The notes beneath the pieces are model-generated. The model had not been told where the DNA came from and did not search any database. It saw only the letters and a program-made list of their open reading frames with translations. Made by a program: the position numbers and the translations under genes. This document shows, one piece after another, positions 2,568 through 45,563 of a stretch of DNA of 45,563 bases; within the stretch, counting starts at the first letter, position 1, and the number at the start of each line of letters is the position of its first letter. The stretch comes from an uncultured Pirellulales bacterium. GTDB taxonomy: Bacteria > Planctomycetota > Phycisphaerae > Sedimentisphaerales > Anaerobacaceae. The stretch lies in NCBI GenBank assembly GCA_964510545.1, contig CAZECQ010000001.1, positions 1 to 45,563 on the forward strand, in the 5' to 3' direction.

Positions 2568-2919
2568 AAAGCTCTCCTGAATAACTTTCTAATTAGTTTA
2601 ATGAGCATTAAACAAAATAACAATTGGAAATTCTTACTTTTTATTAGTCAAACCCCCATTTTCAACCTAAAAACAAGGTTTGGGCAATAATTTTTTATTT
2701 GTCCAATCAATAGACAAGTAACATTTTTCGCGCTAATCATTTTTAGAGAAGGAAAACTCAAATTAGGATACCACCAAAATGTCCTCGTTTAATTTAATCA
2801 TTTTTGCCGCTGCCAGTTTTTATAAGGTACATACCCGCAAACAAACGGGAAATTTCGATTTTGAGCACTATAAAAGTAATCATATAGCCGTTTTGGCGCC
2901 AGTCAAGAGAAAACGGACG

Positions 2920-2934
2920 AAATATACTATTCGC
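2920..2934. repeat. Right copy of the 15-bp direct repeat AAATATACTATTCGC
   Basis: It lies 10 nt downstream (in gene sense) of the stop codon (2945-2947) of the 1485-aa gene, exactly where AT-rich sequence gives way to core composition. Confidence 0.8.
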
Positions 2935-2944
2935 AGGTGATATT

Positions 2945-8231: not shown

Positions 8232-9338
8232 ATGAAAGTAAATTTCAGCAGGGAAGCCCTTACAGAGGCCTTAGGTTTACTCACATTTGTGGTACCAGGC
8301 CGAACGCCAAAGCCGATACTTCAGTGTGTGCGAATCACGGCAGATGAAAAAAATGTGCGAATCTGTGCAACAGACCTCGAGGTCGGCATTAATTGTCAGG
8401 TCTCCGGAGTTCAGATTGAGGAGGCTGGAGAAACAGTTGTCCCGGCGGACAGATTAGCGGCTGTTGTGCGTGAGAGTGCCGACGAAGTGTTATCAGTAGA
8501 GGCAGAGGGTGGGGTATGCAAGATTACAGGTGCCGACAGTCACTTTACGATTTACGGCCAGGAAGCGGAGCAATATCCGACAGTGCCGGGTTTCGATGGC
8601 GCTGCTGATGTAGAGATTAATCTCGGGGTTCTGCAGGGAGGGATAGAACAATGCCTGTTTGCGACGGCCAAAGAAAGCACTCGCTATGCGCTAAATGGTG
8701 TGCTTTGGGAGATGAAAGGCAAGAAGTTACTGTTGGTTGCGACTGACGGCAGGAGGCTTGCCCGCAGCAGGGTCAACCTTGCTACTTCGCCGAGCAAGGA
8801 AATCTCACAGGCGAAGATAATCGTGCCGGCAAAGACGATGGGGCTTTTAGATAAAATCGGCGGAAGCAATAAAGATGTGGTTGCGATTAAGCTTGTCGAT
8901 AACCAGATAGTGATGAATTGTGCGAACGTTGTTGTAAGCTCAAATCTCGTTGAGGGTAACTTTCCGAAATATGAAGACATAATACCGACTGATAACGACA
9001 AGAAGCTGAGATTATCGACAGAGGCGACACTGAGTGCGGTCCGCCGGGCGGCGCTTTTGACAAGCGAGGAGTCCAGAGGGATTAAGTTAGCAGTTGGTCA
9101 GAACAGCTTAGTGTTTTCCTGCAGGGCTCCGGAGGCGGGGGACGCGCAGATAGAGATGAGCGTTGAGTATAAAGGCGAGCCGATTGAAATCGGGTTCAAT
9201 CCACATTTTCTTACGGATGTTCTGCGTGTTATCAAGGAGCCGGAATTTGAGTTAGAGCTGGGGCAGCAGGACAGGCCGGGCCTGATGAAAAGCGGGCAAA
9301 ATTTTCTGTATGTTTTGATGCCGGTGAGTCTGGGGTAG
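8232..9338 (+). CDS. dnaN: DNA polymerase III beta sliding clamp
   Basis: 368 aa. Motifs: PILQCVRI, RYALNGVLWE, LLLVATDGRRLA, NFPKYEDIIP, GFNPHFLTDVLR, C-terminal YVLMPV. AGAGG lies 8 nt upstream of the ATG. Confidence 0.95.
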   Translation: MKVNFSREALTEALGLLTFVVPGRTPKPILQCVRITADEKNVRICATDLEVGINCQVSGVQIEEAGETVVPADRLAAVVRESADEVLSVEAEGGVCKITGADSHFTIYGQEAEQYPTVPGFDGAADVEINLGVLQGGIEQCLFATAKESTRYALNGVLWEMKGKKLLLVATDGRRLARSRVNLATSPSKEISQAKIIVPAKTMGLLDKIGGSNKDVVAIKLVDNQIVMNCANVVVSSNLVEGNFPKYEDIIPTDNDKKLRLSTEATLSAVRRAALLTSEESRGIKLAVGQNSLVFSCRAPEAGDAQIEMSVEYKGEPIEIGFNPHFLTDVLRVIKEPEFELELGQQDRPGLMKSGQNFLYVLMPVSLG

Positions 9339-12402: not shown

Positions 12403-13134
12403 ATGACTGGTAAACAAATGGGCAGTTCAAGCAAAATAAAAAATGTTTTGCAGCCTGCGTTTATTGGCATAGCCTTTTTATTTTGTGCGTTGTTGTTCGG
12501 CGGCTGCGGCGGATCGGATAGAGGGGAGGGGGCGAAAGTCGATAAGGTTTTGAGGACGCCGGCAGAAGAGAAGAAGGCTAGGTTGCTGCGTCAGCTTGAC
12601 CGCAAATTCGAAAATCCGGATGCTCACTTCGAGCTGGGTCAGTTGTATCAGGCGGATGGATTATGGGCCAAGGCCGAGCACGAATATAATACTACTTTGA
12701 GTTTTGAGCCTGCTCACAGAAGAGCCCAGGCGGCAATGGTAAAGGTATTGGAGCAGAGTGGCGATACGAGCAGAGCAGAGTTGTCGGCCGATATCTATAT
12801 GAATCAGGTTAGTGCTTCGGCAGAGGAATCGGCACTGTTGGCGATGGCGTTTCAGGAGCAGGGCCTTGACGAATATGCCTTGAGTTGCTGGCGGCAGGGT
12901 CTTCATTTGGCGCCGAATTCAGCGAATATTAACAGGCAAATCGGCTACTATTATCTGAGTAAAGGTAATAAAGAACAGGCGGCGGATTATTTAAGCCGGA
13001 GTTTCCAGCTTAATTCTAACCAGCCGGAAGTTGCCGGTGAACTGGGCCGACTCGGTGTGGTGATAAAAATACCGCGGAAAACCGAAAGGAGTACAAAGAA
13101 GCTGGATAAAATGATAGATGAGCCCGGCAAGTAG
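12403..13134 (+). CDS. TPR-repeat lipoprotein
   Basis: 243 aa. Signal peptide with a lipobox-like LLFGGC. TPR-like repeats (LGQLYQADGLWAKAEHEYNTTLSFEPAH, and the IGYYYLSKGNKEQAADYLSRSFQLN stretch). Confidence 0.7.
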   Translation: MTGKQMGSSSKIKNVLQPAFIGIAFLFCALLFGGCGGSDRGEGAKVDKVLRTPAEEKKARLLRQLDRKFENPDAHFELGQLYQADGLWAKAEHEYNTTLSFEPAHRRAQAAMVKVLEQSGDTSRAELSADIYMNQVSASAEESALLAMAFQEQGLDEYALSCWRQGLHLAPNSANINRQIGYYYLSKGNKEQAADYLSRSFQLNSNQPEVAGELGRLGVVIKIPRKTERSTKKLDKMIDEPGK

Positions 13135-26025: not shown

Positions 26026-27066
26026 ATGAGAGTGACAGTTGCACAATTGGCTGAACGTCTTGGAGCCGAGTTGGTCGGTGACGGTTCCGGGCAAATAAGC
26101 TCTGTTGGTGCGGTGGAGGCCGCTGACGAGAGCGCGGTCACTTTTGTTACGGATGATAAATATAAGGCCGGTCTGGAGAAGTCGTCAGCAGGTGCCGTTA
26201 TCGTCGGTAGTAAAATGGAGGGTTTTGCCGGCCCTCAGCTTGTTGTTGAAAATGTTGATAAAGCGCTGATAGATGCGTTGACAATTTTTGCGCCGCCACT
26301 AAAGGGTGCGTCTGAAGGTATTGACTCGACTGCAAAGGTTGCCGATGATGCTCAAATTTCCGAAGGTGTTTCTGTGGGTCCTGGCGTGGTAATTGAGGGT
26401 GGAGTCAGGATTGGGCCGAGCACCATAATCGGCGCCGGTTGCAAAATCGGCGAGAATTCCAAGCTCGGTAAAAATTGTCGTCTTGACAGTAATGTTGTTG
26501 TTTATCACAACTGCTGTATAGGCGAGAACGTAATCATCCAGGCAAACAGCACAATCGGCTCGATTGGCTTTGGGCATTCATATATTGACGGCAGACATCA
26601 GCTGATCCCGCACAATGGCGGTGTGGTGATAGAAGATTTTGTCGAGATAGGGGCCAACTGCTGCGTTGACAGGGCAAAGTTCGGCAACACCATAATCGGA
26701 GCCGGGACAAAAATAGATAACCTTGTTCAGATTGCTCATAATGTGGAGATAGGCAAATGCTGTTTGATAGCGGGTCTGGTTGGTATTGCCGGCAGTTGTC
26801 GGCTTGGCGACGGTGTTGTTTTGGCCGGTCAGGTCGGACTGGCGGATAATATAGAAATAGGTGATGGTGTAATAGTCGGTGCTCAGGCCGGTGTTGCCAA
26901 CAGTGTTCCGGGCGGCAAGCAGATAATCGGCTCGCCGGCGATTGACCACAAAAAACAATTTAAGATATTTAGTTTGATGTTTCGTTTACCGAGGCTGGCC
27001 GAGCAGGTAAAGCAGCTCGATGCGAGGGTTGAAAAATTTGAATCTGCAAAAGACAATAAAGAATGA
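26026..27066 (+). CDS. lpxD: UDP-3-O-acylglucosamine N-acyltransferase
   Basis: 346 aa. N-terminal LpxD-type domain, then a long hexapeptide-repeat beta-helix ([40 protein letters not shown]). Confidence 0.9.
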
Positions 27067-28348
27067 GGGCGGGGTAACCGGCAAAAGTTTGTTTGCCGGC
27101 AGGGACGCGAAGGTGGTTTTTCGTCCTGCTCCTGCTGATTCAGGGCTGGTTTTCGTGCGTACTGATGTGCCGGAGCCGGTTCGGATTAGAGCTGTTGCCC
27201 CTAATCTTGCAGAGCGAAGCCGGCGTACGACGATAAGGAAGGATTCTGTCAGCATCGAGACGGTGGAGCATTGTCTGGCGGCGGTTAGCGCTATGGAAAT
27301 CGACAACCTGATCGTGGAAGTTGAAGGTTCTGAGCTGCCGGCTCCGGACTGCAGCAGTGTTGAGTATATCAGGGCTCTAAAGCGTTCGGGCATAGCTGAG
27401 CAGCAGGCTTCTCGCAGGGAGTTTGTTATCACCAAGCCGATAAGTATTACGGCCGGCGGCGCTTCGATATATGCCCTGCCTTATGCCGATAACGGATTAA
27501 GTATCACCTATGATTTGGATTACGGCGGTCATACCGGCATCGGCCGACAGATTTTCGGGTGTTGGGTGACGGCGGAAAATTTTGAAAAAAATCTTGCTCC
27601 TGCGAGGACATTTTTGCTCGAAGCCGAGGCCAAGCAGTTTCAGGCTCGCGGGATGGGGACACATCTTGGGCCTCGTGACATTCTGGTCATTAACTCAGAC
27701 GGTCCGATTAAGAACAGTTACCGATTTGTTGACGAGTGTGCCCGGCACAAAGTGGTTGACCTGATTGGCGACCTTGCACTTGTCGGCCGGGCTGTTAAAG
27801 GAAGGATAGTGGCCTACAGGAGCGGTCATTCATTGAACCAGCAGCTCGTAAAGAAGTTGTATGAAGCGGCTGAAAGGCAGGAACGAATGGCGAGCTTCGG
27901 TACTGATGCGCTTTTGGACATACGGCAAATCGCCAAGATTCTGCCGCACAGATACCCGTTTTTGCTGGTGGACAAAGTAGTTGAGATAGAAGGTAACGAG
28001 CGAATAAAGGGCATAAAGAATGTAAGTTTTAATGAGCAGTTTTTCCAGGGCCATTTTCCGGGTACACCTATTATGCCGGGTGTTCTTATTGTAGAAGCGA
28101 TGGCCCAGGTTTCCGGTTTGTTATTTGCTCAGAAGCTCGAGCATGCGGGCAAGCTTGCGGTGCTTTTGAGCATGGACAATGTAAAATTGCGGAAGACCGT
28201 TGTCCCGGGCGACCAGCTTATTCTTATGGCTGAGACGGTCCGGCTCAGAAAAAGGACCGCGCAATGTCGATGCAAAGCGATGGTAGGCGAAGAAGTTGCT
28301 GCCGAGGCGCAGATTAAATTTATGCTTGTGGATGACGAGAAGATATGA
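27020..28348 (+). CDS. Bifunctional LpxC deacetylase / FabZ 3-hydroxyacyl-ACP dehydratase
   Basis: LpxC part: [48 protein letters not shown]. FabZ part: [43 protein letters not shown] at 27020 overlaps lpxD by 47 nt; TTG at 27038 is an alternative start. Confidence 0.9.
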
Positions 28349-29259: not shown

Positions 29260-30267
29260 ATGGACAGGATACGGACAGCGGTAGTTGGGGCGGGCAAGAT
29301 GGGGGCGGTTCACGCCAAGGTCTATGACCAGCTTGCCCAGAGCGAACTTGTTGCGGTGGTGGATATCGATGCCGTCAGAGCAGAGCGTCTGGCGAAGAAA
29401 TATGACTGTTTGGCTTTTACCGGTTGTGCTGATTTATTGGGCAAAGTAGATGCGGTAACAATAGCTACTCCGACGATACATCATTTGGAGTTGGCGAAAC
29501 TTTTTATCGAAAACAAAGTGCCCATAATGATTGAGAAGCCGCTGGCGGTCGATGTTAAAGAAAGCAAAAAGATTGTACGGATTGCGAAAAAGAAGGATGT
29601 TGTTGTAGGCGTAGGCCATTCCGAGCGCTGCAATCCGGTTGTACAGGCGATGAAGCGGCTCAATATTGAGCCGAAGTTTATCGAGGCAGACCGTGTCAGC
29701 CCTTATCCATTCCGCTCGACGGATGTGGGCGTTGTGCTGGATGTAATGATACACGATATAGATATTATTCTGTCTATGGCTCAGAGTAAAATTAAAAGAA
29801 TAGATGCGGTGGGCGTTGGAGTTATCGATGACAAGGAAGACATCTGTAATGCGAGAATTGTTTTTGAGAACGGCTGCATTGCAAATATTACCGCCTCAAG
29901 ACTGGCTTTGAAAACTGTAAGAAAGATACGAGTCTTTAGCCGGCAGGGGTATCTGAGTCTGGATTATTTCAAAAAATACGGCATTGCAATTAAGGCCGAA
30001 CCAAATATTGATGTTGTCAAGTGGATAAGAGAGCACAAGGAAGCGGGAGACTTTAATCTGCTGAGTGTCAACTGGCCTGACCTACTGCACATCGAAGAGC
30101 TTGAAATTGATGATAAGGAGCCGCTGCGACTTGAGCAGGAAGCTTTTCTGCGTGCCTGTGCGGATAAGGCGGCCAGGCCTGAGGTTACGGCCGAGGATGG
30201 CCTGGCGGCAATGGAGTGTGCCGAGAGGATTCTGGCCTCTGTGAGAAAGCACAAGTGGGATGGGTGA
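29260..30267 (+). CDS. Gfo/Idh/MocA-family NAD(P)-dependent oxidoreductase
   Basis: Rossmann N-terminus IRTAVVGAGKMGAVHAKV and an EKPLA motif. Located immediately after lpxA. Confidence 0.85.
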   Translation: MDRIRTAVVGAGKMGAVHAKVYDQLAQSELVAVVDIDAVRAERLAKKYDCLAFTGCADLLGKVDAVTIATPTIHHLELAKLFIENKVPIMIEKPLAVDVKESKKIVRIAKKKDVVVGVGHSERCNPVVQAMKRLNIEPKFIEADRVSPYPFRSTDVGVVLDVMIHDIDIILSMAQSKIKRIDAVGVGVIDDKEDICNARIVFENGCIANITASRLALKTVRKIRVFSRQGYLSLDYFKKYGIAIKAEPNIDVVKWIREHKEAGDFNLLSVNWPDLLHIEELEIDDKEPLRLEQEAFLRACADKAARPEVTAEDGLAAMECAERILASVRKHKWDG

Positions 30268-34708: not shown

Positions 34709-35770
34709 ATGATTGCTCAAACGCTTAAATGGGTTGGTGACATTGACGGTTTTCTGGAGCTTACGGACCAGCGGCTGCTGCCTGCTGAATTTGCCAGGCT
34801 GCAATGCAGGAACATCAGTCAGGTTTATGAAGCGATAAAGACACTTGCTGTGCGTGGGGCGCCTGCCTTAGGGGTTAGCGCTGCTTATGGGCTGGTTTTG
34901 AGTTTGCAGAAGTTGGCTAAAGGTGACGGTGTTCAGGCCGGACTTGTTTGCCTGAAAGAGACCTGTGAGTATCTGGCCTTGTCACGACCGACGGCGGTGA
35001 ACCTATTTTGGGCGATGGAAAGGATAAGGCAAAAAGCTGAGGAATTTACTGCGGCAGACGCGAAGGCGGATGTGAGGAAGCTGCGGCAGTTTGTTTTGGC
35101 TGAGGCGAATGCTATTTGTCAGGAGGATGTTGATATGTGCCGCCTGATTGGAGAAAACGGCCAAAAGTTTATCGAGGAAAGGAGCGGCGTTTTGACACAT
35201 TGCAACGCCGGCGCACTGGCAACTGCCGGTCAGGGGACGGCTTTGTCTGTGCTATTTGAGGCACATAAGAGGGGCAGGAAATTCAAGGTTTATGCTGATG
35301 AGACCCGACCTTTATTACAGGGAGCACGATTGACGGCCTGGGAATTAAAGCAGGCCCGAATTGATGTTACCGTTATTTGTGACAATATGGCAGGAGCGCT
35401 TATGAAGCAGGGGCAAATCAGTATAGTGATAACCGGTGCCGACAGAATCGCTGCAAACGGCGATGCAGCAAATAAAATCGGCACTTACAGCCTTAGTGTT
35501 CTGGCCAAAGAACACAGCATACCTTTTTATATCGCTGCGCCGTCAAGCACATTTGATTTGGGTATAAAAAGCGGGGCCGAGATACCCATCGAGCAAAGGG
35601 CAGCTGAGGAGGTAACGACCTTTGCTGAAGTACAAATTGCACCTGAAGGCGTTGATGTGTATAATCCGGCATTCGACGTTACGGATGCTTCGCTTATTAC
35701 CGCAATAATTACAGAAAAGGGTGTAATTGAGAACCCCAACGCTGACAATATTTCCAGATGTTTAAGGTGA
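34709..35770 (+). CDS. mtnA: S-methyl-5-thioribose-1-phosphate isomerase (eIF-2B alpha/beta/delta-like family)
   Basis: Motifs: LELTDQRLLP, LAVRGAPALGVSAAYG, SRPTAVNLFWA, LTHCNAGALAT, YADETRPLLQGARLTAWEL, GADRIAANGDAANKIGTY, YNPAFDVT. Confidence 0.85.
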   Translation: MIAQTLKWVGDIDGFLELTDQRLLPAEFARLQCRNISQVYEAIKTLAVRGAPALGVSAAYGLVLSLQKLAKGDGVQAGLVCLKETCEYLALSRPTAVNLFWAMERIRQKAEEFTAADAKADVRKLRQFVLAEANAICQEDVDMCRLIGENGQKFIEERSGVLTHCNAGALATAGQGTALSVLFEAHKRGRKFKVYADETRPLLQGARLTAWELKQARIDVTVICDNMAGALMKQGQISIVITGADRIAANGDAANKIGTYSLSVLAKEHSIPFYIAAPSSTFDLGIKSGAEIPIEQRAAEEVTTFAEVQIAPEGVDVYNPAFDVTDASLITAIITEKGVIENPNADNISRCLR

Positions 35771-35777
35771 AAGACTT

Positions 35778-37241
35778 ATGACAGAAACAGGGAGTCAGAA
35801 TTTAGAGTCGGCCGAAACAATTGCCGCAGTGCAGCCGAATGCGGAGTCGTTGCTTCGTTGGCACAGGCGAAACAGTTATTATTATAGCTGGCTGGAGCGG
35901 ATTTATAAATTTGTTGTTCGCCCAAACAGCCGGGTCCTGGACGTTGGTTGTGAGTTTGGAGACCTGTTAGCTGCGGTTGAGCCGTCATATGGTGTTGGGA
36001 TAGATTCGGACGGTGATGCTATTGAACTGGCGAAGAAGCGATTCAGCCATTTGGAGTTTCGCACAGTTGACCCGCACGAAATGGAGATTAACGAAAAATT
36101 TGATTATGTTTTGATTTGCAATTCATTGGGTCAGTGGCGTGACATCCAGGATGTTCTTGAGCGCATTCATCCTGCAACTACAGAGAGCACACGGATTGTG
36201 ATAACCTATTACAATCATTTTTGGGAGAGTGTTTTACGATTGGGGTCTTGGCTTAGGCTTCGTCGGCCGCATTCATATCAAAACTGGCTGCCGTCGAAGG
36301 ACATCGAGAACCTGCTTGGCTTGAGTGGTTTTGATGTTATTCGGTCGGACTCTTTTCTGCTGCTGCCGAAGCGTATTTGGCCTTTTGCAAGTATTTGTAA
36401 TTATTTTCTTACTTTACTGCCGGGATTTCGCTTTTTCAATTTGGTAAATCTTGTGGTGGCCCGTCCATTGCCGGTTGCCTGCCGCGATGAGGACTTGTCT
36501 GTTTCAGTTATAATTCCGTGCAGAAATGAGCGGGGCAACGTTGAGGATGCCATAAGACGGGTTCCGCAGATGGGTAGGGAAACGGAGATAATTTTTGTTG
36601 ATGGCAACAGCACAGACGGCACGGCCGAAGAGATAGAAAATCAGATAAAAAATCATCCGGAACGAAGAATAAGTTTAATTCATCAGGGCGATGGAGTCGG
36701 CAAAGGCGATGCCGTGAGAAAAGGTTTTGCCGCCGCCGAGGCAGATGTACTGGTCATTCAGGATGCGGACCTGACGGCGCCGCCTGAAGATTTGCCGAAA
36801 TTTTTCAGGGCGCTGTGCGATGGTAAAGGCGAGTATATTAACGGTTCTCGGCTTGTTTATCCTATGGAAAAGCAAGCGATGCGTTTTTTGAATCTGCTTG
36901 GGAATAAATTTTTCGGTTCTTTGTTTAGCTGGCTGCTGGGACAGAGATTCAGGGATACACTTTGTGGAACGAAAATGATTCGAAAAAAAGATTATGAGTT
37001 AATAGCAAATAACCGTTCGTACTTTGGCGAATTTGACCCTTTCGGTGATTTTGACCTTATTTTTGGAGCGGTCAAGCAGAACTTTAAGGTTGTTGAGGTG
37101 CCGGTGACATATCGTGCAAGAACTTACGGTTCGACAAATATCAGCCGATTCAGACACGGCTGGCTGCTGCTTAAAATGAGCTGGATTGCATTTAAGAAAA
37201 TCAAGTGGCTTGGAAGGGCACGTGACACAAAAACAAATTGA
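35778..37241 (+). CDS. Fusion protein: N-terminal class I SAM-methyltransferase-like domain plus C-terminal GT2 (DPM1/ArnC/GtrB-like polyprenyl-phosphate glycosyltransferase)
   Basis: Methyltransferase-like part: VLDVGCEFGDLL, FDYVLICNSLG. Hydrophobic linker. GT2 part: VSVIIPCRNERGNV, EIIFVDGNSTDGT, GKGDAVRKGF, VIQDADLTAPPEDL. The start is 7 nt after the mtnA stop. Confidence 0.8.
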   Translation: MTETGSQNLESAETIAAVQPNAESLLRWHRRNSYYYSWLERIYKFVVRPNSRVLDVGCEFGDLLAAVEPSYGVGIDSDGDAIELAKKRFSHLEFRTVDPHEMEINEKFDYVLICNSLGQWRDIQDVLERIHPATTESTRIVITYYNHFWESVLRLGSWLRLRRPHSYQNWLPSKDIENLLGLSGFDVIRSDSFLLLPKRIWPFASICNYFLTLLPGFRFFNLVNLVVARPLPVACRDEDLSVSVIIPCRNERGNVEDAIRRVPQMGRETEIIFVDGNSTDGTAEEIENQIKNHPERRISLIHQGDGVGKGDAVRKGFAAAEADVLVIQDADLTAPPEDLPKFFRALCDGKGEYINGSRLVYPMEKQAMRFLNLLGNKFFGSLFSWLLGQRFRDTLCGTKMIRKKDYELIANNRSYFGEFDPFGDFDLIFGAVKQNFKVVEVPVTYRARTYGSTNISRFRHGWLLLKMSWIAFKKIKWLGRARDTKTN

Positions 37242-37290
37242 CCAAATTAAATTTATTTCTTGAGCATCCGACGCTTGGCAGAGAGGCTGT

Positions 37291-39258
37291 ATGAAACGAA
37301 CGTCCCGGAAATCTTATTTTCTAATGATTTGTGTAGTTCTTGTGGTTGCTACAGGAGTGCTCTATTGGCAGGTGCCGGGTTTTGATTTTGTCGATTATGA
37401 TGACCAGCTTTACGTAGAGGACAACGAGATTGTCCAAAAAGGGCTGACGCGAGAAGGGTTTGTATGGGCTTTTACCACGGACAAAACCGGATACTGGCAC
37501 CCATTGACGTGGTTGTCGCTTATGCTTGATTGTCAATTATCGCAGGATTTGGTGCGCATCTGTCATACGACGAATGTGTTAATTCATATTGCTAACACGT
37601 TGTTATTGTTTTGGATTTTGAAGCGGATGACTTCGGCGTTGTGGTGCAGTGGTTTTGTAGCTGCGCTGTTTGCACTGCATCCTCTGCACGTGGAGTCTGT
37701 GGCGTGGATTTCGGAGCGCAAAGATGTGCTGAGTACTTTTTTCTTTTTTTTGACGATATTGTTTTATGTACGTTATGTTGAGAGGCGGTGCTTTTTCAGA
37801 TATGTTACGGTTGCGTTGTGTTTTGCTCTTGGTCTTCTGGTCAAACCGATGATTGTGACTCTGCCTTTTGCTCTGCTTCTTTTGGACTATTGGCCATTTG
37901 GACGTTTGCAGCCGGGGGAATTGGTCAGTAAGGGAGCAGAAAGGAAAAAGGCCTGGAAGGCGGCAGGGTGTTTGGTGATTGAGAAGGCGCCCCTTTTTAT
38001 TTTGACGGCTGTTTTGTGTGTTGTTACATACCTGCTGAATAAGAGTACTAAGGGGATTATGGATTTGGACCTTGGTGTACGGCTCTCCAATGCAGTTGCA
38101 TCCTATGGCCGTTATATAGGCAAGATGTTTTGGCCGAGCGGTCTGGGAGTTATTTATCTGCATCCTAACAAGATAGAGGTCACACCGACGGTGATTTCGT
38201 TAATTGTACTGATTTGCATATCGGCTGCGGTAATTTTTTGGGGGCGTCGTCGGCCTTATCTGGCGATGGGCTGGTTGTGGTACATAGGATTGCTTGTGCC
38301 GGTCATTGGTTTGGTGCAGGTTGGCAATCAGGCAATGGCTGACAGATATACCTATGTGCCGCTGGTTGGTTTGTTCATTATGATTGCCTGGAGTGCTGCG
38401 GGTGTCACTAAAGGTTTGCGTCATTACAGGATTACATTAGGTGTGGTGGGTGTGTCAATAATTTTGGTTTTGTCGGTTTGTACATGGTTTCAGATACAGC
38501 ATTGGCAGAACGGCATTACGCTTTTTGCACATGCAATTGATGTAACTGGGGGCAATTATGTGGCGTATAATAACTTTGGTATGGCGTTGGATGAGGCCGG
38601 TAAAGTTGATGAGGCGATTGAGCAGTGGAAGCAGGCATTACGGCTAAGGCCGAACCATTACAGAGTCACCGGAAACCTGGTGCGGGTTCTGATTGAAAAG
38701 GGGCGTATTGAAGAAGCAATTTTTTATTACAATAAGTTTTTGGAGCGGTCCCCGGAGGACTGTAAAATACGAATGTATTTGGCTGATGCGCTCTTTCGGC
38801 TGGGGGTTTATGACAGGGCCGGTGAATATTATGAAGTGGCACTTGTTTCCGGCTGCGATGCTGCGAGTATCCATTACAATTTGGCTGCTGCCCTTTCACA
38901 TCAGGGCAGATATGATGATGCGATTTTTCATTATAGTAAGTTTTTGCAGCAGCGGCCGGACAGTTTCAGGGCACACAATAATCTCGGTGCAGTATTGATG
39001 TCCAGACGTGAAGATGCCGAAGCGATAAAACATTTTCAGGAGTCGCTACGGCTGAACTGGGATTATTTTGGTGCGCATATAAACCTGGCGACGATACTGA
39101 TGGACCAGGGCAATATCTCCGAAGCGATAAAGCATTACGAAGAGGCGGTGCGGATTGACCCGAATGACACCGGAGTTCGGGAGGAGCTGAAAAAGGCCAG
39201 GGAGGCTGTAGCCAAACAGGCGAAAAGTGAACAAGTAACAGACAGGGGTACTGTATGA
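37291..39258 (+). CDS. TMTC-like GT-C membrane glycosyltransferase (DUF1736-type) with C-terminal TPR repeats, copy 1
   Basis: 655 aa. First-loop FDFVDYDDQLYVEDNEIV (DD motif), HTTNVLIHIANTLLLF, HVESVAWISERKDVLSTFFFF, multiple TM helices, then about 6 TPR units (NNFGMALDEAGKVDEAIEQWKQALRLRP and others). Confidence 0.8.
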   Translation: MKRTSRKSYFLMICVVLVVATGVLYWQVPGFDFVDYDDQLYVEDNEIVQKGLTREGFVWAFTTDKTGYWHPLTWLSLMLDCQLSQDLVRICHTTNVLIHIANTLLLFWILKRMTSALWCSGFVAALFALHPLHVESVAWISERKDVLSTFFFFLTILFYVRYVERRCFFRYVTVALCFALGLLVKPMIVTLPFALLLLDYWPFGRLQPGELVSKGAERKKAWKAAGCLVIEKAPLFILTAVLCVVTYLLNKSTKGIMDLDLGVRLSNAVASYGRYIGKMFWPSGLGVIYLHPNKIEVTPTVISLIVLICISAAVIFWGRRRPYLAMGWLWYIGLLVPVIGLVQVGNQAMADRYTYVPLVGLFIMIAWSAAGVTKGLRHYRITLGVVGVSIILVLSVCTWFQIQHWQNGITLFAHAIDVTGGNYVAYNNFGMALDEAGKVDEAIEQWKQALRLRPNHYRVTGNLVRVLIEKGRIEEAIFYYNKFLERSPEDCKIRMYLADALFRLGVYDRAGEYYEVALVSGCDAASIHYNLAAALSHQGRYDDAIFHYSKFLQQRPDSFRAHNNLGAVLMSRREDAEAIKHFQESLRLNWDYFGAHINLATILMDQGNISEAIKHYEEAVRIDPNDTGVREELKKAREAVAKQAKSEQVTDRGTV

Positions 39259-41201
39259 AACGAACACCCCGGAAATTTTATTTTTTAATGATTTGTGTGG
39301 TTCTTGCGGTTGCCACAGGCTCTCTCTATTGGCAGGTGCAGGGGTTTGATTTTGTCAATTATGATGACCAGGCTTATGTGGAGGACAACGAGATTGTCCG
39401 GAAAGGGCTGACACGCGAAGGATTTGTTTGGGCTTTTACGACGGACAAAACTGGCTATTGGCATCCATTGACGTGGCTGTCGCTTATGCTTGATTGTGAA
39501 TTGGCCCGCTCTGTAACGCGCACCTGTCATACGACGAATGTGTTGATTCATATTGCCAATACACTGCTGTTATTTTGGGTTTTAAGGCGCATGACATCGG
39601 CCCTGTGGTGCAGCGCTTTTGTGGCAGTACTGTTTGCACTGCATCCGCTGCATGTGGAGTCTGTAGCGTGGATTTCGGAACGTAAGGACGTGCTTAGCAC
39701 GTTTTTCTTTTTTTTGACAATGCTTTTTTATGTGCATTATGTTGAACGTCCGGGCTTTTTAAGATATGTACCGATTGCATTGTGTTTTGCGATAGGGCTT
39801 CTGGCTAAACCGATGTTGGTAACGCTACCATGCGTTCTGCTTCTTTTGGATTACTGGCCATTGGGGCGGTTGCGGCCGGGGCAATTGCTTGGTAAAGGCA
39901 AGGAAGGGGAAGGAGCAAGAAAGGCCGCTGTTCGTCTGATGGCTGAGAAGATACCCCTTTTTATTTTGACGGCTGCTTTGTCCATAGTTACATACCTGCT
40001 GCAGAAGAGCGGTCAGGTTGTAGCTGATTTGGAGTTCGGTGTGCGGCTTTCCAATGCGATTGCCTCCTACGGCCGATATATAGGCAAGATGTTTTGGCCG
40101 AGTGGTCTGACGGTAATTTATCTGCATTCTGAGAGAATAGAGGTATTGCCATTAGTGGTCTCGTCAATCGTGTTGGTTTGTGTATCAGTGGTGATAATTC
40201 TTCAAGTGCGGCGGCGGCCTTATCTGGCGATGGGCTGGTTGTGGTATATCGGTTTGCTGGTGCCGGTTATTGGTTTGGTGCAGGTGGGCAATCAGGCAAT
40301 GGCTGACAGGTACACTTATGTGCCTCTGGTGGGCTTGTTTATTATGCTCACCTGGGGTGCTGCAGATGTTACCAAAGGTTTGCGTTATCGCAGGAATACG
40401 TTAGGTGTGGTAGGTGTGTCAATAATTTTGGTTTTGTCGGTGTGTACAGGGTTTCAGATACAGCACTGGCAAAACGGTGTTACTCTTTTCGGGCATGCAG
40501 TTGATGTAACCAAGGGTAATTACCTTGCACATAGTAACTTTGGTGTGGCGTTGAAAAAGGTTAATAGGGATGAGGATGCGATTGAGCAATGGAAGATATC
40601 GTTACAGATAAAACCGGACTTTGATACCGCCATTGGTAACCTGGGGCCGGTTCTGGTTGAAAATGGACGAGTTGAGGAGGCGGTTTTTTACTATAGAGAA
40701 TTCCTGGAATTGGCCCCGGATGATTGCAGGACACAAATAAATATGGCCGATGCCCTCTCTCGCCTGAAGGTTTATGACCAGGCCGTCGAACATTATGAGT
40801 TGGCGCTGCTGTTTGGTTGCGATTCTGTCGGCATCCATTACAATTTAGCTATGACCCTTTCAAATCTGGGCAGATATGACGAAGCGATTTTGCATTACAG
40901 TAAATTCCTGGAACAGCGGCCGGATAGTTTCAGGGCGCACAATAATCTGGGAGCATTGCTTCTGGCTATGCGTAATGATGACGAAGCGATTAAGCATTTT
41001 CAGGAAGCGCTTCGGCTGAACTGGAATTATCTTGGTGCGCATATGAACCTGGCAATGGTGCTGATGGACCGGGGCGGTATCTACGAAGCAATCCTACACT
41101 ATGAGGAGGCGGTGCGAATTAACCCAAACGACCGTACAGCTCAAAAGGCGCTGAAAAAAGCGAAAGAAATGTTGGCAATGCAGAACAAACAAGATAAGTA
41201 A
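39255..41201 (+). CDS. TMTC-like GT-C membrane glycosyltransferase with C-terminal TPR repeats, copy 2 (tandem paralog)
   Basis: 648 aa with the same motifs as copy 1. ATGA start/stop overlap with copy 1. The first 100 aa are 85/100 identical to copy 1 by hand count. Confidence 0.8.
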   Translation: MKRTPRKFYFLMICVVLAVATGSLYWQVQGFDFVNYDDQAYVEDNEIVRKGLTREGFVWAFTTDKTGYWHPLTWLSLMLDCELARSVTRTCHTTNVLIHIANTLLLFWVLRRMTSALWCSAFVAVLFALHPLHVESVAWISERKDVLSTFFFFLTMLFYVHYVERPGFLRYVPIALCFAIGLLAKPMLVTLPCVLLLLDYWPLGRLRPGQLLGKGKEGEGARKAAVRLMAEKIPLFILTAALSIVTYLLQKSGQVVADLEFGVRLSNAIASYGRYIGKMFWPSGLTVIYLHSERIEVLPLVVSSIVLVCVSVVIILQVRRRPYLAMGWLWYIGLLVPVIGLVQVGNQAMADRYTYVPLVGLFIMLTWGAADVTKGLRYRRNTLGVVGVSIILVLSVCTGFQIQHWQNGVTLFGHAVDVTKGNYLAHSNFGVALKKVNRDEDAIEQWKISLQIKPDFDTAIGNLGPVLVENGRVEEAVFYYREFLELAPDDCRTQINMADALSRLKVYDQAVEHYELALLFGCDSVGIHYNLAMTLSNLGRYDEAILHYSKFLEQRPDSFRAHNNLGALLLAMRNDDEAIKHFQEALRLNWNYLGAHMNLAMVLMDRGGIYEAILHYEEAVRINPNDRTAQKALKKAKEMLAMQNKQDK

Positions 41202-41226
41202 TAGCAAAAGCTGTAAAAAATAAATT

Positions 41227-42003
41227 ATGAAACTGATAAAAAGATGGCTCAAGCTTCCCGGAACCAGGCACATCAAGGACCTTGATGACCCTGCCGCTAC
41301 GTTGTTCCACGCACGCACGGTACAGTGTAAACCGTTTCTTAGAAGGTTATACATTGATTTTTACAAGCAGCTTAAAAAAGCGGTACCTGATTCTGAACAC
41401 AGGTTTGTTGTTGAACTTGGCAGCGGCGGCGGCTTTATCAAGAAGGTGATAGCAGATGCGGTTACAAGTGACATCCTTGAGCTTCCGAATGTTGATAAGA
41501 CGTTCTCAGCTCTTGATATGCCCTTCGAAGAGGGTAGTGTTGATGCGTTTTTAATGATTGACGTTCTTCATCACATCACTGATTCGAAGGGTTTTTTCGC
41601 CGAGGCGCTGCGATGCCTTAAGAAAGGCGGTAAGATTATTATGATTGAGCCGGCAAATACGTTTTGGTCGAGGTTTATCTACAGGAATTTTCATCACGAA
41701 TTGTTTGATACTCAGGCAGGCTGGCAGCTTGAAGAGATTGGCCCGCTTTCGCACGGTAACGGTGCGATTCCCTGGATAATTTTTTCGCGGGACAGCAGGA
41801 TTTTTGAAAGCCTATTTCCTTCTTTGAAGATTGTTTCGATGCACACCCACACACCCCTGCGGTATCTACTCAGCGGCGGTTTGAAGCTCCGCCAGCTGGT
41901 GCCGTCTTTTACTTACCCCGCGGTTAAAGCTGTAGAATTTATCCTGACTCCCGCCAATGGTTTATTGGGTATGTTTCAGACTATAGAACTTCAAAAAGTT
42001 TAG
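41227..42003 (+). CDS. Class I SAM-dependent methyltransferase
   Basis: 258 aa. Motif I VVELGSGGGFIKK, DAFLMIDVLHHI, LKKGGKIIMIEP. Confidence 0.8.
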   Translation: MKLIKRWLKLPGTRHIKDLDDPAATLFHARTVQCKPFLRRLYIDFYKQLKKAVPDSEHRFVVELGSGGGFIKKVIADAVTSDILELPNVDKTFSALDMPFEEGSVDAFLMIDVLHHITDSKGFFAEALRCLKKGGKIIMIEPANTFWSRFIYRNFHHELFDTQAGWQLEEIGPLSHGNGAIPWIIFSRDSRIFESLFPSLKIVSMHTHTPLRYLLSGGLKLRQLVPSFTYPAVKAVEFILTPANGLLGMFQTIELQKV

Positions 42004-42013
42004 GGCAAAAACA

Positions 42014-43705
42014 ATGGCAAGGGCAAGAGGCAAAAAGAAAGAAGCTAAAAAGACAGATGTTTCAGCTTTGCCGGTGTTGAGCGTGCCTGCCTGGGGCCGC
42101 GGTACTGTGATAGCGTTGCTTATTTTAGTTGGAGTAAGCGCCACCTTTAATTTCACGGCAATCAACTGGGGCCAGCCCGCCGGGTATTCCTGGAATCCAG
42201 ATTCTGTAGCAGGGGCCAGAACCGTTCGCCAGTTGCAGTATATATTTAAGCCCTGGACACAGAAATACCCTCGCTTTCATTTTTTGATACTTAAGATTTT
42301 CTATCAGCCGTTTATAGACCACTGGGAGAAGAATCCAGTAACAGGTTTTGACCGGCAGGGCCGTCAGGTCAGCACGCTTTTCAACACCGAACGTTTCAGT
42401 ACCCTGGTTATTGTCTCCAGGACAATCTCTGCACTTATGGGTGTAGGTGCGGTTGTGGGATTATTTTTTACGGCGAGATTGTTTTTTGGCGATTGGATCT
42501 CGGCCTTTTTTTCGGGCCTTGCTCTTGCCTGTTCGATGCTTTTTGTTCTGTACAGCCATCTGGCAAATATGGATGTTCCCTGTGCCTTCTGGTTTGCCTG
42601 GAGTGTGTACTGGGCTGTCAAAGCTGTTTATATAGGAAAATGGCGTCACTTTGTTTTGCTTGGTTTATTCAGTGCCCTGACGGTATGCACAAAAGACCCT
42701 GCTGCAGGTTTTGTCATTGGTCTTGGTCTTGCCGTTTGGCTGGCGATGATAGGTGTGGCAAAGGATGCGGGCCAATCTTTTAAGAGAGGTTTGACTTGTA
42801 TTTTCAGATTGAAAGTGCTGGCGGCGGTTTTGGTTGCGGGATTTGTCTTTGCACTGCTGAATGACCTTTTAACCTCGCCGAGCGCATTTTTCGAGCGAAT
42901 GGATTTCTGGTTTAAGGTAGGTGCTGCCGGATATAATATAGGTTTCAGCGACCATTGGACGTTTCTAAAGAGAAACTTCATGTCTATTTATTATTCATTG
43001 GGCTGGCCATTATTGGCGGCGATTTTGGTTTCTGCAGTGTATTGTATTATCAGGTTCAGGTGGAAGTCGGCCTTTGGAATAGTGCCGGTTGTGGTTTTTT
43101 ACATAGTTGTGATAGCACGTGTTCGCCTGAATATACCTCGGTATTATATACCGGGCTATGTTTGTTTTATGCTGCTTGTGGGCAAAGGCTTTGCTGAGCT
43201 GCTTCGGTGGAAAAAGCTGCCTTTAGCGGTTAGAATTCTGCCGATTGCCGCTGTCTATCTTCTCAGCGGGCTTTATTGTATCGGCATTGATTTGGAAATG
43301 ATTAATGACAGTCGTTATAGGGCCGAAAAATGGCTTAAGACTCAGGTTACTCCGGCTGATACGGTCATAGCGATGTCGCAGCAGGCATATGCACCGCGCG
43401 TTCAAATGCTTGGCTGCAGGTCGAATTTCATCACAGCCAGACCTAAGGACGAAAAGCTTCTGCAACAAATCAGGCCTTTTGCAACCTATCTTGTTTTGCC
43501 TGAGAAGGAATTTGGTATGAGTTCGGCGTTTGCCCCGCAGTTTTTGGACAGGCTTCTTGCCGGCTCGTATGGTTACGAAGAGGTGGAGCGTTTTTCAAAT
43601 AAGTATCTTTATCCGAAGAAAACGGTTTTTGGTCTGGCTGGCTGGCCCGTTCCTCGTTCAAAGCTGGTCAGTCCCGAGATAATCATCTTAAGAAGAAAGG
43701 ATTGA
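42014..43705 (+). CDS. Polytopic membrane protein, GT-C-fold glycosyltransferase-like (PMT_2/DUF2723-like)
   Basis: 563 aa with at least 10 hydrophobic helices. First-loop Asp (SWNPDSVAG) followed by KYPRFHFLILKIFY. The central region FFGDWISAFFSGLALACSMLFVLYSHLANMDVPCAFWFAW resembles ArnT/PMT-family cores. C-terminal soluble domain. Confidence 0.6.
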   Translation: MARARGKKKEAKKTDVSALPVLSVPAWGRGTVIALLILVGVSATFNFTAINWGQPAGYSWNPDSVAGARTVRQLQYIFKPWTQKYPRFHFLILKIFYQPFIDHWEKNPVTGFDRQGRQVSTLFNTERFSTLVIVSRTISALMGVGAVVGLFFTARLFFGDWISAFFSGLALACSMLFVLYSHLANMDVPCAFWFAWSVYWAVKAVYIGKWRHFVLLGLFSALTVCTKDPAAGFVIGLGLAVWLAMIGVAKDAGQSFKRGLTCIFRLKVLAAVLVAGFVFALLNDLLTSPSAFFERMDFWFKVGAAGYNIGFSDHWTFLKRNFMSIYYSLGWPLLAAILVSAVYCIIRFRWKSAFGIVPVVVFYIVVIARVRLNIPRYYIPGYVCFMLLVGKGFAELLRWKKLPLAVRILPIAAVYLLSGLYCIGIDLEMINDSRYRAEKWLKTQVTPADTVIAMSQQAYAPRVQMLGCRSNFITARPKDEKLLQQIRPFATYLVLPEKEFGMSSAFAPQFLDRLLAGSYGYEEVERFSNKYLYPKKTVFGLAGWPVPRSKLVSPEIIILRRKD

Positions 43706-43707
43706 TT

Positions 43708-45132
43708 ATGAAGCACGCGAAATTATTGTTGCATATTATTCTTTGCGTGTTGTTCGTGCTGCTGGTTGTTTGGAATGCGGCGCAGATTTTTGACGGGCGG
43801 CCGCTGCAGAAGGGCAACGATGCAAGTTATCACATCAGGACGGGATACAATCTTATAAATCATAAGACATATTCTTATAGATTGGGTGAAAACCTTAAAC
43901 CTGATGCATATCGTGAGCCAACGATGGCAGCTTACATTGCGATGCTTGTCGGTGCCAGCAGCACACTCGGCAGTGTGGATGCTACAACAACATTAGCGGG
44001 AGGCGACGGGCTGGAAATACTTCGGTATGCTCAACTGCCGATATTAATTCTGACCGCTTTTGGGGCGATGTACTTTGTCTATCTGGTTACGAAAAATTTC
44101 TTCTGCAGCTATGTCGCCTTGTTATTGACCGGCTTTAGCTATTCGTTGTTTTTTTCCGCCTGGAGCGTTAACACCGAACATATGGCAGCGCTGTTTGTGA
44201 CGGCCGCTTCGATATCTTTGTATGAAATCGTAAGGGGCAGAGGTAAAAAATACTTTGCATTCTTAGGTGTATCTTTGGCGCTGCTGGTTCTTACCAAAGC
44301 TGTGTTTATGTACCTGATTGTGTTCATTTTGATTTTTTTGGTTGTTCCTGGGTTGGCCGGGAAATTTGTAAAAAAGGAACTTATTGCAGGGCTGGTCATA
44401 CTGCTGGCGGCGTATTTTGCGTTTGTTGGAAGCTGGATGGTGCGAAATTACATACACTTCGACAAATTTTACATAAGCGGCAGAGGCGGTAATATTTTAT
44501 CGATACGTGCCGAATATGATATGATGAATAGCAGGGAATATTTCGGCTCTTTTCTCTTCTGGACGCCGGACAACTATGTACGCAAGAAATTAATACCGCG
44601 CTTTTTCGGGGAAAAAGCATTTCATCCGGGTGGTGCATTGGAACGGCTTCTCAGAAACAATTATAAGACCGGTTATCTGCGTCAGGCTACCAATAAGAGA
44701 AAAGAACTTATCGCTGCTTACGGTACCGGGATGGAGACTACTGTGATTGATAAGGAAATGCGGCGATATGCCAGGAACAAGATTTTAAGCCATCCGTTCC
44801 GGCATATTTTTGTAACGCTGCCTATCGCCTGGAAAGGGCTTTTCGTTGAGGACAGGTATTCTTTGTCGGTTCCTTTCAGTATGGTTTTAGTCAGCAGCGT
44901 AGGCATCAGTCTGGCGTATTTCGGGTCACTATTCTTTTTGGCAGGTTTGGGTATCAAAAGACGACAATGGGACCTGTTTTCAGTTAGTTTGCCGGCTTTG
45001 TACTTGTATGGGGTGAATTCGTTTTGTACGCACAATATTCCGAGGTATAATCAGCCGATTATCCCTGTTCTTATAGTTGCCCTGCTGATTGTGGTGCATT
45101 TGCTAATCAACAGAAAGAGCTGTTCGCGATAA
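43708..45132 (+). CDS. Polytopic membrane protein, ArnT/PMT-like GT-C glycosyltransferase candidate
   Basis: About 474 aa. Loop-1 pattern GNDASYHIRTGYNLINHKTY...YREPTMAAYIAMLVG resembles the D..Y...A..L...PPLY pattern of ArnT/PMT_2. Many TM helices. ATG at 43708 follows AGAAAGG (TTG at 43702 would overlap the upstream stop). Confidence 0.55.
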   Translation: MKHAKLLLHIILCVLFVLLVVWNAAQIFDGRPLQKGNDASYHIRTGYNLINHKTYSYRLGENLKPDAYREPTMAAYIAMLVGASSTLGSVDATTTLAGGDGLEILRYAQLPILILTAFGAMYFVYLVTKNFFCSYVALLLTGFSYSLFFSAWSVNTEHMAALFVTAASISLYEIVRGRGKKYFAFLGVSLALLVLTKAVFMYLIVFILIFLVVPGLAGKFVKKELIAGLVILLAAYFAFVGSWMVRNYIHFDKFYISGRGGNILSIRAEYDMMNSREYFGSFLFWTPDNYVRKKLIPRFFGEKAFHPGGALERLLRNNYKTGYLRQATNKRKELIAAYGTGMETTVIDKEMRRYARNKILSHPFRHIFVTLPIAWKGLFVEDRYSLSVPFSMVLVSSVGISLAYFGSLFFLAGLGIKRRQWDLFSVSLPALYLYGVNSFCTHNIPRYNQPIIPVLIVALLIVVHLLINRKSCSR

Positions 45133-45222: not shown

Positions 45223-45563
45223 TTATTGTGTTCTTGGGAATTTTGCTCTAACTATTACAGTCCAGCTTATAAACTTGAGAAAGTTGGGCAAAATTTTATC
45301 AAGCATTGAATCTATAAAGACGGCTGCTTTGGATATTCTCGAAAACAGCCATTGTGGTCTCAATATCACTTCGCCGAAGGGAGTAGAAAAGAAACCGTCA
45401 AATCTGTATGAAATTTCTTCGAACCCATTCCTGTTTAGTAAATCAACCAACTCGGACGGCTTAAAGAAAATTTGGTCTGCAGAATAAGAACTGTCGATTT
45501 TTTTTCTAATCCACCTCATAAACTGGACAATAGGGTTCAGTCTGTGTGGTTCTATGGCCACGA
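45223..45563 (-). CDS. C-terminal part of a class I SAM-methyltransferase-like protein (truncated by the window edge)
   Basis: The ORF is open to the window end. FKPSELVDLLNRNGFEEISYRFDGFF and a terminal ...VIVRAKF are typical of methyltransferase C-termini. Noticeably AT-rich and convergent with the glycosylation operon. Confidence 0.5.
   Translation of the reverse strand, partial: VAIEPHRLNPIVQFMRWIRKKIDSSYSADQIFFKPSELVDLLNRNGFEEISYRFDGFFSTPFGEVILRPQWLFSRISKAAVFIDSMLDKILPNFLKFISWTVIVRAKFPRTQ

Follow-up and report, generated by a model that had tools for sequence, protein, structure and literature searches.

We describe a seven-gene cluster (Table 1) in a 45,563-nucleotide stretch of DNA, here called the window, that spans positions 1–45,563 of contig CAZECQ010000001.1 (assembly GCA_964510545.1) of an uncultured Pirellulales bacterium. 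The cluster is anchored by a gene in which an S-adenosylmethionine (SAM)-dependent methyltransferase is fused to a GT2 glycosyltransferase (hereafter, the fusion). It is preceded by mtnA and followed by two paralogous genes for GT-C-like membrane proteins with tetratricopeptide repeats (TPR-GT-Cs), a stand-alone methyltransferase gene (MT258) and two further genes for predicted GT-C membrane proteins (GTC6 and GTC7). The likely role of the cluster is to add a sugar, possibly a methylated one, to envelope molecules outside the cytoplasm. We propose that it encodes a multi-component extracytoplasmic glycosylation module of the GtrB/GtrC, ArnC/ArnT, CsbB/YfhO and DPM1/PMT kind, a reading to which we assign a probability of roughly 0.55. 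Its conserved core consists of the fusion, a separate methyltransferase and variable polytopic or GT-C proteins.

The donors of GT-C enzymes are sugars linked to lipid phosphate, which are used on the non-cytoplasmic face of the membrane; GT2 enzymes of the GtrB/DPM1 type make these donors on the cytoplasmic side. This framework of donor synthase and GT-C transferase is restated in PMC11127046. In the fusion, Methyltransf_23 matches residues 28–188 and Glycos_transf_2 (PF00535, 88 bits) residues 243–397, bearing out the two-domain arrangement of the original prediction; the GT2 domain as a whole covers residues 243–470. Its best relative of solved structure is the dolichyl-phosphate-mannose (Dol-P-Man) synthase of P. 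furiosus (5mlz, 4e-17, residues 239–456), and the alignment takes in the DAD motif and the amphipathic helices after it, on the acceptor side. ArnC (1e-10) and GtrB (1e-4) are the next solved relatives, in agreement with the DPM1/ArnC/GtrB type originally assigned to this domain. For the fusion, MT258, GTC6 and GTC7, no curated NCBIfam model attains its cut-off. The best models for the fusion are AglJ (109 bits versus a cut-off of 325) and a haloarchaeal dolichyl-phosphate-hexose transferase, both far below the cut-off, and the ArnC model reaches 44.9 bits versus 529. At the level of homology, the fusion is a putative polyprenyl-phosphate-sugar synthase, and the recurrent linkage of GT2 and GT-C genes described below supports the view that it feeds several GT-Cs.

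More than 8000 homologues of the fusion were found; the best 120 show 76–90% identity, and those with a name belong for the most part to Planctomycetota, Sedimentisphaerales or Phycisphaerales, which also led us to assign the window to Phycisphaerae. When one genome per species was scanned, at least 558 full-length relatives (47–78% identity) were obtained from more than 10 phyla, including Planctomycetota, Fibrobacterota, Latescibacterota, Desulfobacterota, Nitrospirota, Myxococcota, Bacteroidota, Omnitrophota, Chloroflexota, Elusimicrobiota and Proteobacteria. When 74 sequences from more than 10 phyla were aligned, the GT2 half showed very high conservation, and D329 and D331 of its DAD motif are conserved in at least 95% of the sequences. 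The same level is reached by G57 and G61 of SAM motif I and by the acidic residue D76 in the methyltransferase half. This cross-phylum conservation of SAM-binding residues suggests that the methyltransferase domain of the fusion is probably active. A protein as strongly conserved in more than 10 phyla as the fusion usually has a core function.

The gene neighbourhoods of the fusion were compared in 73 related loci (L numbers below). Open reading frames (ORFs) with at least seven transmembrane (TM) segments and at least 380 aa make up 19% of the genes at positions −2 to +3 relative to the fusion, versus 6.8% at positions ±5 to 9 (odds ratio 3.2, p = 1.7e-6), and this enrichment decays with distance. 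The 63 polytopic neighbours include 12 proteins with PMT_2, 4 with YfhO, 2 with PMT, 1 with PTPS_related and 1 with DUF2079, as well as 2 with Wzy_C and 2 with Polysacc_synt. Next to the fusion, homologues of the TPR-GT-C membrane domain are encoded in Phycisphaerae (L003) and also, as an independent occurrence, in Desulfobacterota. The strongest independent linkage of this kind outside Planctomycetota is found in a metagenome-assembled Smithella genome (L064, ~3700–9000), where four tandem TPR-GT-C genes lie directly upstream of the fusion, then a TetR regulator. TPR-GT-C homologues are also present at the fusion in L018, L027, L057, L069 and L073.

A separate methyltransferase gene directly follows the fusion in ~40–45% of the loci. 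An MT258 homologue occupies position +1 in 22 of 70 loci and position +2 in 7 of 64, across phyla, and by these homology searches MT258 is the fusion's most widely conserved partner. Other class I methyltransferases hold position +1 in L016, L069 and L073, as do class I or FkbM methyltransferases in further loci. MT258 itself matches Methyltransf_11 (43.7 bits) as a stand-alone protein, which fits the SAM methyltransferase originally proposed, and it contains no hydrophobic segment, as expected of a soluble cytoplasmic enzyme. Neither MT258 nor the fusion has a signal peptide or TM span, save one segment in the linker of the fusion.

Phycisphaerae loci share a common frame of mtnA, the fusion, a variable cassette, MT258 and a polytopic protein of 550–620 aa. 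In the window, the cassette consists of two TPR-GT-Cs; L003 has a single one, L009 and L010 carry an additional methyltransferase, and L004 has a larger set of glycan genes. In L085 (5458–9185), where the flanks are kept, the cassette is made up of a 525-aa GT2-methyltransferase fusion in the reverse order and a YfhO-like protein of 714 aa. The independent fusion of methyltransferase and GT2 in both orders suggests that the methyltransferase acts on the substrate or product of the GT2 reaction. The TPR-GT-Cs and GTC7 are cassette-like, variable or lineage-specific additions, and the exact seven-gene set occurs only on near-identical contigs. The seven genes are thus not the conserved unit for which a check of synteny had been suggested.

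This last finding could also mean that the genes are neighbours by chromosome organisation and not by function. In that case, independent envelope genes would lie side by side in a compact region, with a GT2 whose acceptor is not a polyprenyl lipid, unrelated methyltransferases, and GT-Cs whose donors are made elsewhere. The single orientation of all genes from dnaN on, with its strong GC skew, would agree with such an arrangement, and some chance adjacency is expected because the TPR-GT-C family is enormous (>8000 matches). However, the links of the fusion to a methyltransferase and to polytopic or GT-C proteins recur in more than 10 phyla in unrelated contexts and decay with distance, and the frame of fusion, MT258 and GTC6-like protein is kept while the intervening cassette is swapped. 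We therefore regard mere chromosomal coincidence as quite unlikely and retain the glycosylation module as the preferred explanation.

The structural evidence for the transferase side of this module comes from the TPR-GT-C paralogues, which are 73% identical over their full length and 80% identical in the N-terminal domain (N-domain), with the invariant residues common to both. Their C-terminal TPR families score up to 123 bits (paralogue 1). On the membrane domains, PMT_2 gives 23 bits for paralogue 1, below threshold, and no match for paralogue 2, and the GT-C proteins found no match in the PDB by sequence. An AlphaFold2 (AF2) model of the N-domain of paralogue 1 (residues 1–415, 56 homologues, pLDDT 82.3, pTM 0.88) showed a GT-C fold. 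All of the top 21 PDB entries matched by Foldseek are GT-C structures, among them STT3 of the human and yeast oligosaccharyltransferase (OST), Pmt4 (TMq 0.54), PglB, ArnT, ALG9, Pmt1/Pmt2, AftA and DPY19, and the fold expected for this protein in the original prediction was thus recovered by modelling. With the full-length model (pLDDT 85.9), TPR matches filled the list of the fold search, which was uninformative on the membrane domain. In the paralogue 1 model, 11 long helices precede the TPRs (before residue ~410); this odd TM number, together with a positively charged N-terminus on the inside, would place the TPR domains in the periplasm.

This architecture recalls the eukaryotic TMTC proteins. 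Their motifs are DD and [YW][RH]PL in loop 1, RxD in loop 2, K...T in loop 3, DW in loop 4 and [ED]RxxY in loop 5, and a DUF1736 segment, matched by every human TMTC at E<1e-30, lies in the TM7–TM8 loop (PMC7801869). The residues invariant in the 56 homologues include D37, D38, R143, D145, K185, R352 and Y355. By eye and from the predicted topology, counterparts can be placed in loop 1 (D37/D38 for DD; W69, H70, P71 and L72 for [YW][RH]PL), loop 2 (R143, K144 and D145 for RxD), loop 3 (K185...T190 for K...T) and loop 5 (D351, R352, Y353, T354 and Y355 for [ED]RxxY). The DW motif is not present in paralogue 1, in which the loop at 253–296 has F280–W281 instead. DUF1736 (PF08409) and DUF2723, both named in the original prediction, gave no match even at E<=10. 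Because DW and DUF1736 are missing and the other motifs were placed by eye, 'TMTC-like' is a fair term for the architecture and is not used here to denote membership in the family.

GTC6 matches PMT_2 (PF13231) with 36.7 bits, above the gathering score of 26.1, and has 8 hydrophobic segments. Its 32 homologues found are all from Planctomycetota and mostly match PF13231, with or without PF02366; a GTC6 homologue also lies directly after MT258 in L085. GTC7, with 7 hydrophobic segments, reaches 25.9 bits for PF13231, i.e. 0.2 bits short of the gathering score. An exhaustive search gave 1022 clusters at 50% identity for the GTC7 family. Among 60 members scanned, PMT_2 was found in 16, PMT in 8 and STT3 in 1, with otherwise one weak DUF6057 match. 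Loop 1 of this family carries a near-invariant Asp (D38) and a conserved 'AYREP' motif. A profile of the 60 sequences found no match in the PDB, the NCBIfam scan gave no match for GTC6 or GTC7, and by tblastn neither was traceable beyond close relatives. Comparison of the three GT-C families by hhalign gave weak scores, the best being that of GTC7 versus the GTC6 family (E = 0.019, 206 co-linear columns). The N-domain model, the PMT_2 score of GTC6 and the Pfam matches of the GTC7 family, nearly all of which are GT-C families, agree with the four GT-C enzymes counted originally. All four membrane proteins of the cluster are predicted to be GT-C-like, the TPR pair from the structural model and GTC6 and GTC7 from their family matches. 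Only PMT_2 (PF13231) was found in the window proteins, none of which matches PF02366 or MIR; this rules out membership in GT39 (PMT). The proteins at the GTC6 position in L003 (14187–16043) and L009 (7510–9342) are 611–619 aa long with 10–11 TM segments and no Pfam match. They show no detectable tblastn similarity to GTC6, and may be very divergent GT-Cs or another kind of membrane protein.

The relationship of GTC6 and GTC7 to PMT_2, a Pfam family that also covers ArnT-like enzymes, raises the question of whether lipid A or lipopolysaccharide (LPS) is modified. In such a scheme, of the ArnC/ArnT (or FlmF/FlmK, LgmA/LgmB) type, the fusion would make an undecaprenyl-phosphate (Und-P)-linked sugar that GTC6 and GTC7 add to lipid A phosphates or core, and the TPR proteins would serve another purpose. 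One JGI homologue bears the name 'Ara4N transferase-like' (Ara4N, 4-amino-4-deoxy-L-arabinose), ArnC ranks second among the solved relatives of the GT2 domain, and lpxD, lpxC-fabZ and lpxA lie ~5.5 kb upstream on the same strand, both here and in L004. However, the module stands in another context without lpx genes in L003, no ArnA/ArnB/ArnD, deacetylase or deformylase is present, neither GTC6 nor GTC7 matches the ArnT model of NCBIfam, and the methyltransferases and TPR-GT-Cs would be left unexplained. We consider this scheme unlikely as a full account; as a sub-hypothesis on the acceptor, it is compatible with the glycosylation module preferred here. Membership in the Arn pathway itself was ruled out by the lack of an ArnT match and of arnABD-type domains in the window.

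Several observations weigh against the glycosylation module. Glucosyl-3-phosphoglycerate synthases are also among the weaker matches of the GT2 domain, and an identity of only ~25–30% to the solved relatives does not fix the acceptor. The single hydrophobic segment of the fusion (210–228) lies in the inter-domain linker, and its C-terminus is amphipathic and not hydrophobic. The C-terminal TM helices of the DPMS/GtrB/ArnC type were not found in it, so that its association with the membrane is presumed. The 73 loci are not phylogenetically independent, ORF calling in them was crude, and many to most of the 63 polytopic neighbours have no Pfam assignment. No ORF of 70–220 aa with at least three hydrophobic segments, as expected for a flippase, exists anywhere in the window. 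A search of the 73 loci for GtrA-like flippases found an SMR transporter gene beside the fusion in one only (L036). Furthermore, we know of no case in which a methylated monosaccharide carried by polyprenyl phosphate serves as the donor of a GT-C. Gene spacing does not help either: that of the cluster is like that of uvrA-mtnA and skp-lpxD, as would be the case for chance neighbours, and the predicted co-transcription of the seven genes was derived from spacing that is unremarkable for the region.

Domain and ORF scans confirmed that the cluster contains no flippase, Wzx/Wzy or nucleotide-sugar gene, as stated in the original prediction, and no transporter Pfam family was detected in the cluster. 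Flipping would be performed either by a housekeeping flippase or by one of the unassigned membrane proteins. An O-antigen or capsule locus was ruled out by the lack of Wzx/Wzy, phosphoglycosyl transferase (PGT) and nucleotide-sugar genes in the cluster.

The identity of MtnA is secure (434 bits on the TIGR00512 equivalog versus a cut-off of 279, and 452 versus 271 on NF004326), as originally assigned. In every Phycisphaerae locus examined (L003–L010 and L085), mtnA directly precedes the fusion with a gap of −8 to 31 nt, though the gene further upstream varies. Outside Phycisphaerae, it is not beside the fusion except in L054 (Nitrospiraceae), with a loose gap of 205 nt, and sister Nitrospira loci do not have it there. 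This adjacency, essentially confined to Phycisphaerae, rules out mtnA as a universal component, and its functional link to the module is putative. The coupling is puzzling, as the methyltransferases yield S-adenosylhomocysteine (SAH) and not the MtnA substrate, which derives from methylthioadenosine (MTA).

The close linkage in Phycisphaerae nonetheless brings to mind the 5-methylthioxylose (MTX) system of Mycobacterium tuberculosis, in which MtxT is reportedly a GT-C and the sugar is said to come from methionine salvage. As described in PMC8780516, the GT2 enzyme MtxS (Rv0539) forms polyprenyl-phosphate-MTX and MtxT (Rv0541c) transfers MTX to lipoarabinomannan (LAM). By analogy, the donor sugar of the present cluster might be a methylthio-pentose from the methionine-salvage intermediate of MtnA, and the 'methyltransferase' domains might have a different SAM-dependent role. 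We consider this origin highly improbable: in the other phyla, where the fusion is still ~50% identical, mtnA is not its neighbour save in the one loose case; MtnA removes 5-methylthioribose 1-phosphate (MTR-1-P) and does not supply it; and there is no nucleotidyltransferase or epimerase in the cluster, whose methyltransferases produce SAH, not MTA.

In the glycosylation scheme that we favour, the GT2 half of the fusion would work at the cytoplasmic face of the inner membrane, held there by the linker segment and the C-terminal amphipathic helix, and would move one sugar from a housekeeping nucleotide-sugar onto polyprenyl (undecaprenyl) phosphate. The fused methyltransferase, and probably MT258 too, would methylate this sugar on the cytoplasmic side. 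Because SAM is cytoplasmic and both methyltransferases are devoid of export signals, methylation would precede flipping and would most simply take place on the lipid-linked sugar. An unlinked flippase would then carry the lipid-linked (methyl)sugar across the membrane, where the four GT-Cs would pass it to different periplasmic acceptors. A conserved synthase combined with divergent, swappable transferases, the pattern of Gtr seroconversion, suggests one donor for many acceptors. The TPR domains, by analogy with TMTC proteins, suggest recognition of a protein or partner. The two TPR-GT-Cs would thus most likely act on proteins; for GTC6 and GTC7, the most likely acceptor would be a glycan or a lipid, for example LPS. 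We regard the annotation of the individual genes as solid and this mechanism, built on their homologies, as plausible.

The coordinates of the seven plus-strand ORFs match those of the original prediction exactly, as do the intergenic gaps of 7, 49, −4 (an ATGA overlap), 25, 10 and 2 nt. The last value presumes that GTC7 begins with the ATG at 43708, as it is annotated to do on L001, an ENA contig that is nearly identical (99% protein identity).

Table 1. Genes of the cluster and its 3' boundary in the window
Feature	Position	Strand	Description
mtnA	34709..35770	+	353 aa; S-methyl-5-thioribose-1-phosphate isomerase; TIGR00512, PF01008
Methyltransferase-GT2 fusion	35778..37241	+	487 aa; putative polyprenyl-phosphate sugar synthase; module anchor
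TPR-GT-C paralogue 1	37291..39258	+	655 aa; predicted GT-C membrane domain 1–~410, TPR ~420–650
TPR-GT-C paralogue 2	39255..41201	+	648 aa; tandem duplicate of paralogue 1; TPR Pfam matches
MT258	41227..42003	+	258 aa; stand-alone class I SAM methyltransferase; Methyltransf_11
GTC6	42014..43705	+	563 aa; predicted PMT_2-type GT-C membrane protein with C-terminal soluble domain
GTC7	43708 (ATG) or 43702 (TTG)..45132	+	474 or 476 aa; predicted divergent PMT_2-like GT-C membrane protein
Convergent class I SAM methyltransferase gene, cut by window end	45223..45563	-	marks 3' boundary

The uvrA stop codon lies 23 nt upstream of mtnA, and the remaining co-directional gene pairs of the window are separated by −47 to 88 nt. 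Since gaps are equally small between housekeeping neighbours, spacing alone defines neither an operon nor its 5' boundary, and scans for sigma-70 promoters and intrinsic terminators gave no usable operon boundary. The tight packing on which the operon of the original prediction was founded is real, but it does not serve as evidence for an operon when uvrA-mtnA and other pairs are packed as tightly. Continuation of the operon past 45563, a point raised in the same prediction, can be dismissed, as the cluster ends at 45132 and the next ORF is convergent. The counterpart of this ORF in L001 (13210–13830, minus strand) matches Methyltransf_11 with 59 bits, and the gene may be part of the same functional neighbourhood. 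What stands of the predicted glycosylation system is its central idea of a donor synthase serving GT-C enzymes, which is supported by the recurrent linkage; the fixed seven-gene set and the operon based on spacing are not supported.

The cluster lies in a compact leading-strand stretch of housekeeping genes with a steady GC skew of ~+0.25 (range +0.2 to +0.3). The gene order in the window is dnaN, gyrB, ftsK, tRNA-Gln, prs, pth, ribosomal protein genes, dnaB, bamA, skp, lpxD, lpxC-fabZ, lpxA, a peptidyl-prolyl isomerase (PPIase) gene, nfi (minus strand) and uvrA. From dnaN/gyrB on (8232–45132), almost all genes are on the plus strand, and the window start is probably close to the replication origin. 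LpxC and FabZ (a FabA-like domain) are fused in a 442-aa protein (27020–28348) that overlaps the end of lpxD by 47 nt, and a GFO/IDH/MocA oxidoreductase gene follows lpxA (29260–30267); this arrangement is found likewise in L004. A stand-alone TPR protein of 243 aa is encoded between gyrB and ftsK (12403–13134).

At positions 1–3000, the GC content is 0.35–0.37 versus ~0.48 elsewhere, and this segment could be a foreign insertion beside the dnaN region. An ORF at 161–1408 (plus strand) has a weak AAA_16 ATPase match, and a 266-aa ORF at 1767–2567 (minus strand) has no Pfam match. The only large minus-strand gene of the window (2945–7402) encodes a 1485-aa protein with BcrAD_BadFG ATPase, DUF2229 and HGD-D domains, a giant fused protein similar to CoA-enzyme activases and dehydratases.

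Full-text searches of the literature found no paper on the fusion, MT258 or what bacterial TPR-GT-Cs do, and we know of no bacterial TPR-GT-C with a known donor or substrate. Bacterial TPR-GT-Cs comprise thousands of sequence clusters that are annotated merely as 'tetratricopeptide repeat protein', and through their linkage to the fusion, two very large families of uncharacterised proteins come within reach of experiment. If a lipid-linked monosaccharide donor is indeed methylated, this would be a new tailoring step in extracytoplasmic glycosylation and would offer a way to learn what the bacterial TMTC-like enzymes do. A more specific proposal, which we put forward tentatively and consider rather doubtful, is that the fusion is the dedicated donor synthase of an undescribed and widespread bacterial pathway, making a methylated or SAM-derived polyprenyl-phosphate sugar that TMTC-like TPR-GT-Cs use to O-glycosylate periplasmic or surface proteins. 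Such O-glycosylation would parallel eukaryotic TMTC O-mannosylation in prokaryotes, might be related to it by descent, and would use a lipid-linked donor of a new kind. If the module merely adds a side-chain sugar to a polysaccharide, it would be one more Gtr-like system.

Several known systems resemble the module in part. Three-component systems are represented by GtrA/GtrB/GtrC in Shigella and Salmonella, CsbB/GtcA/YfhO in Gram-positives and the pentofuranose systems of Citrobacter (PMC11127046). The module shares with the Gtr type a GT2 of the Dol-P-Man-synthase/GtrB type beside GT-C transferases, a conserved donor synthase with swappable GT-Cs, and no need for nucleotide-sugar genes. It differs in having no GtrA, SMR or MATE flippase gene, in the N-terminal SAM methyltransferase and missing C-terminal TM helices of the synthase, in a second methyltransferase as a near-constant partner, and in four GT-Cs per synthase, two of them with TPRs.

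The ArnC/ArnT pathway, like FlmF/FlmK and LgmA/LgmB, follows the logic proposed here, in that an Und-P-linked sugar is tailored while lipid-linked, before transfer by a PMT_2/ArnT-type GT-C. The tailoring in these pathways is deformylation or deacetylation, whereas methylation is proposed here, and the cluster has no ArnA/B/D-type genes, ArnT equivalog match or ArnE/F flippase. MtxS/MtxT, which cap the lipoarabinomannan of M. tuberculosis with MTX, likewise pair a polyprenyl-phosphate-sugar synthase with a membrane transferase for an unusual sugar linked to SAM and methionine, and mtnA adjoins the fusion here, a likeness drawn from descriptions of the two systems. The mtnA linkage is lineage-specific, however, MtnA consumes MTR-1-P, and the mycobacterial enzymes have no fused methyltransferase. 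In Haloferax, the SAM methyltransferase AglP acts on a dolichol-phosphate-linked sugar in the cytoplasm, a precedent for the methylation of a lipid-linked sugar. AglJ of the same archaeal S-layer N-glycosylation pathway is the top NCBIfam model for the GT2 domain, with a score that is far below the cut-off; the present system is bacterial and without AglB/STT3, and its methyltransferase is fused to the GT2. TMTC1–4 (GT105), which operate with DPM1, share with the TPR-GT-Cs a GT-C domain of ~11 TM segments followed by C-terminal TPRs, predicted here to lie on the non-cytoplasmic side as in TMTC1–4. They differ in DUF1736 and the loop 4 DW motif, both absent here, and in that the paired GT2 of the module is fused to a methyltransferase. 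By its domain content, the module would thus belong to the known class of multi-component extracytoplasmic glycosylation systems, and would be distinguished within it by hitherto undescribed features, namely a missing flippase and TM anchor, fused and accessory methyltransferases and TMTC-like transferases.

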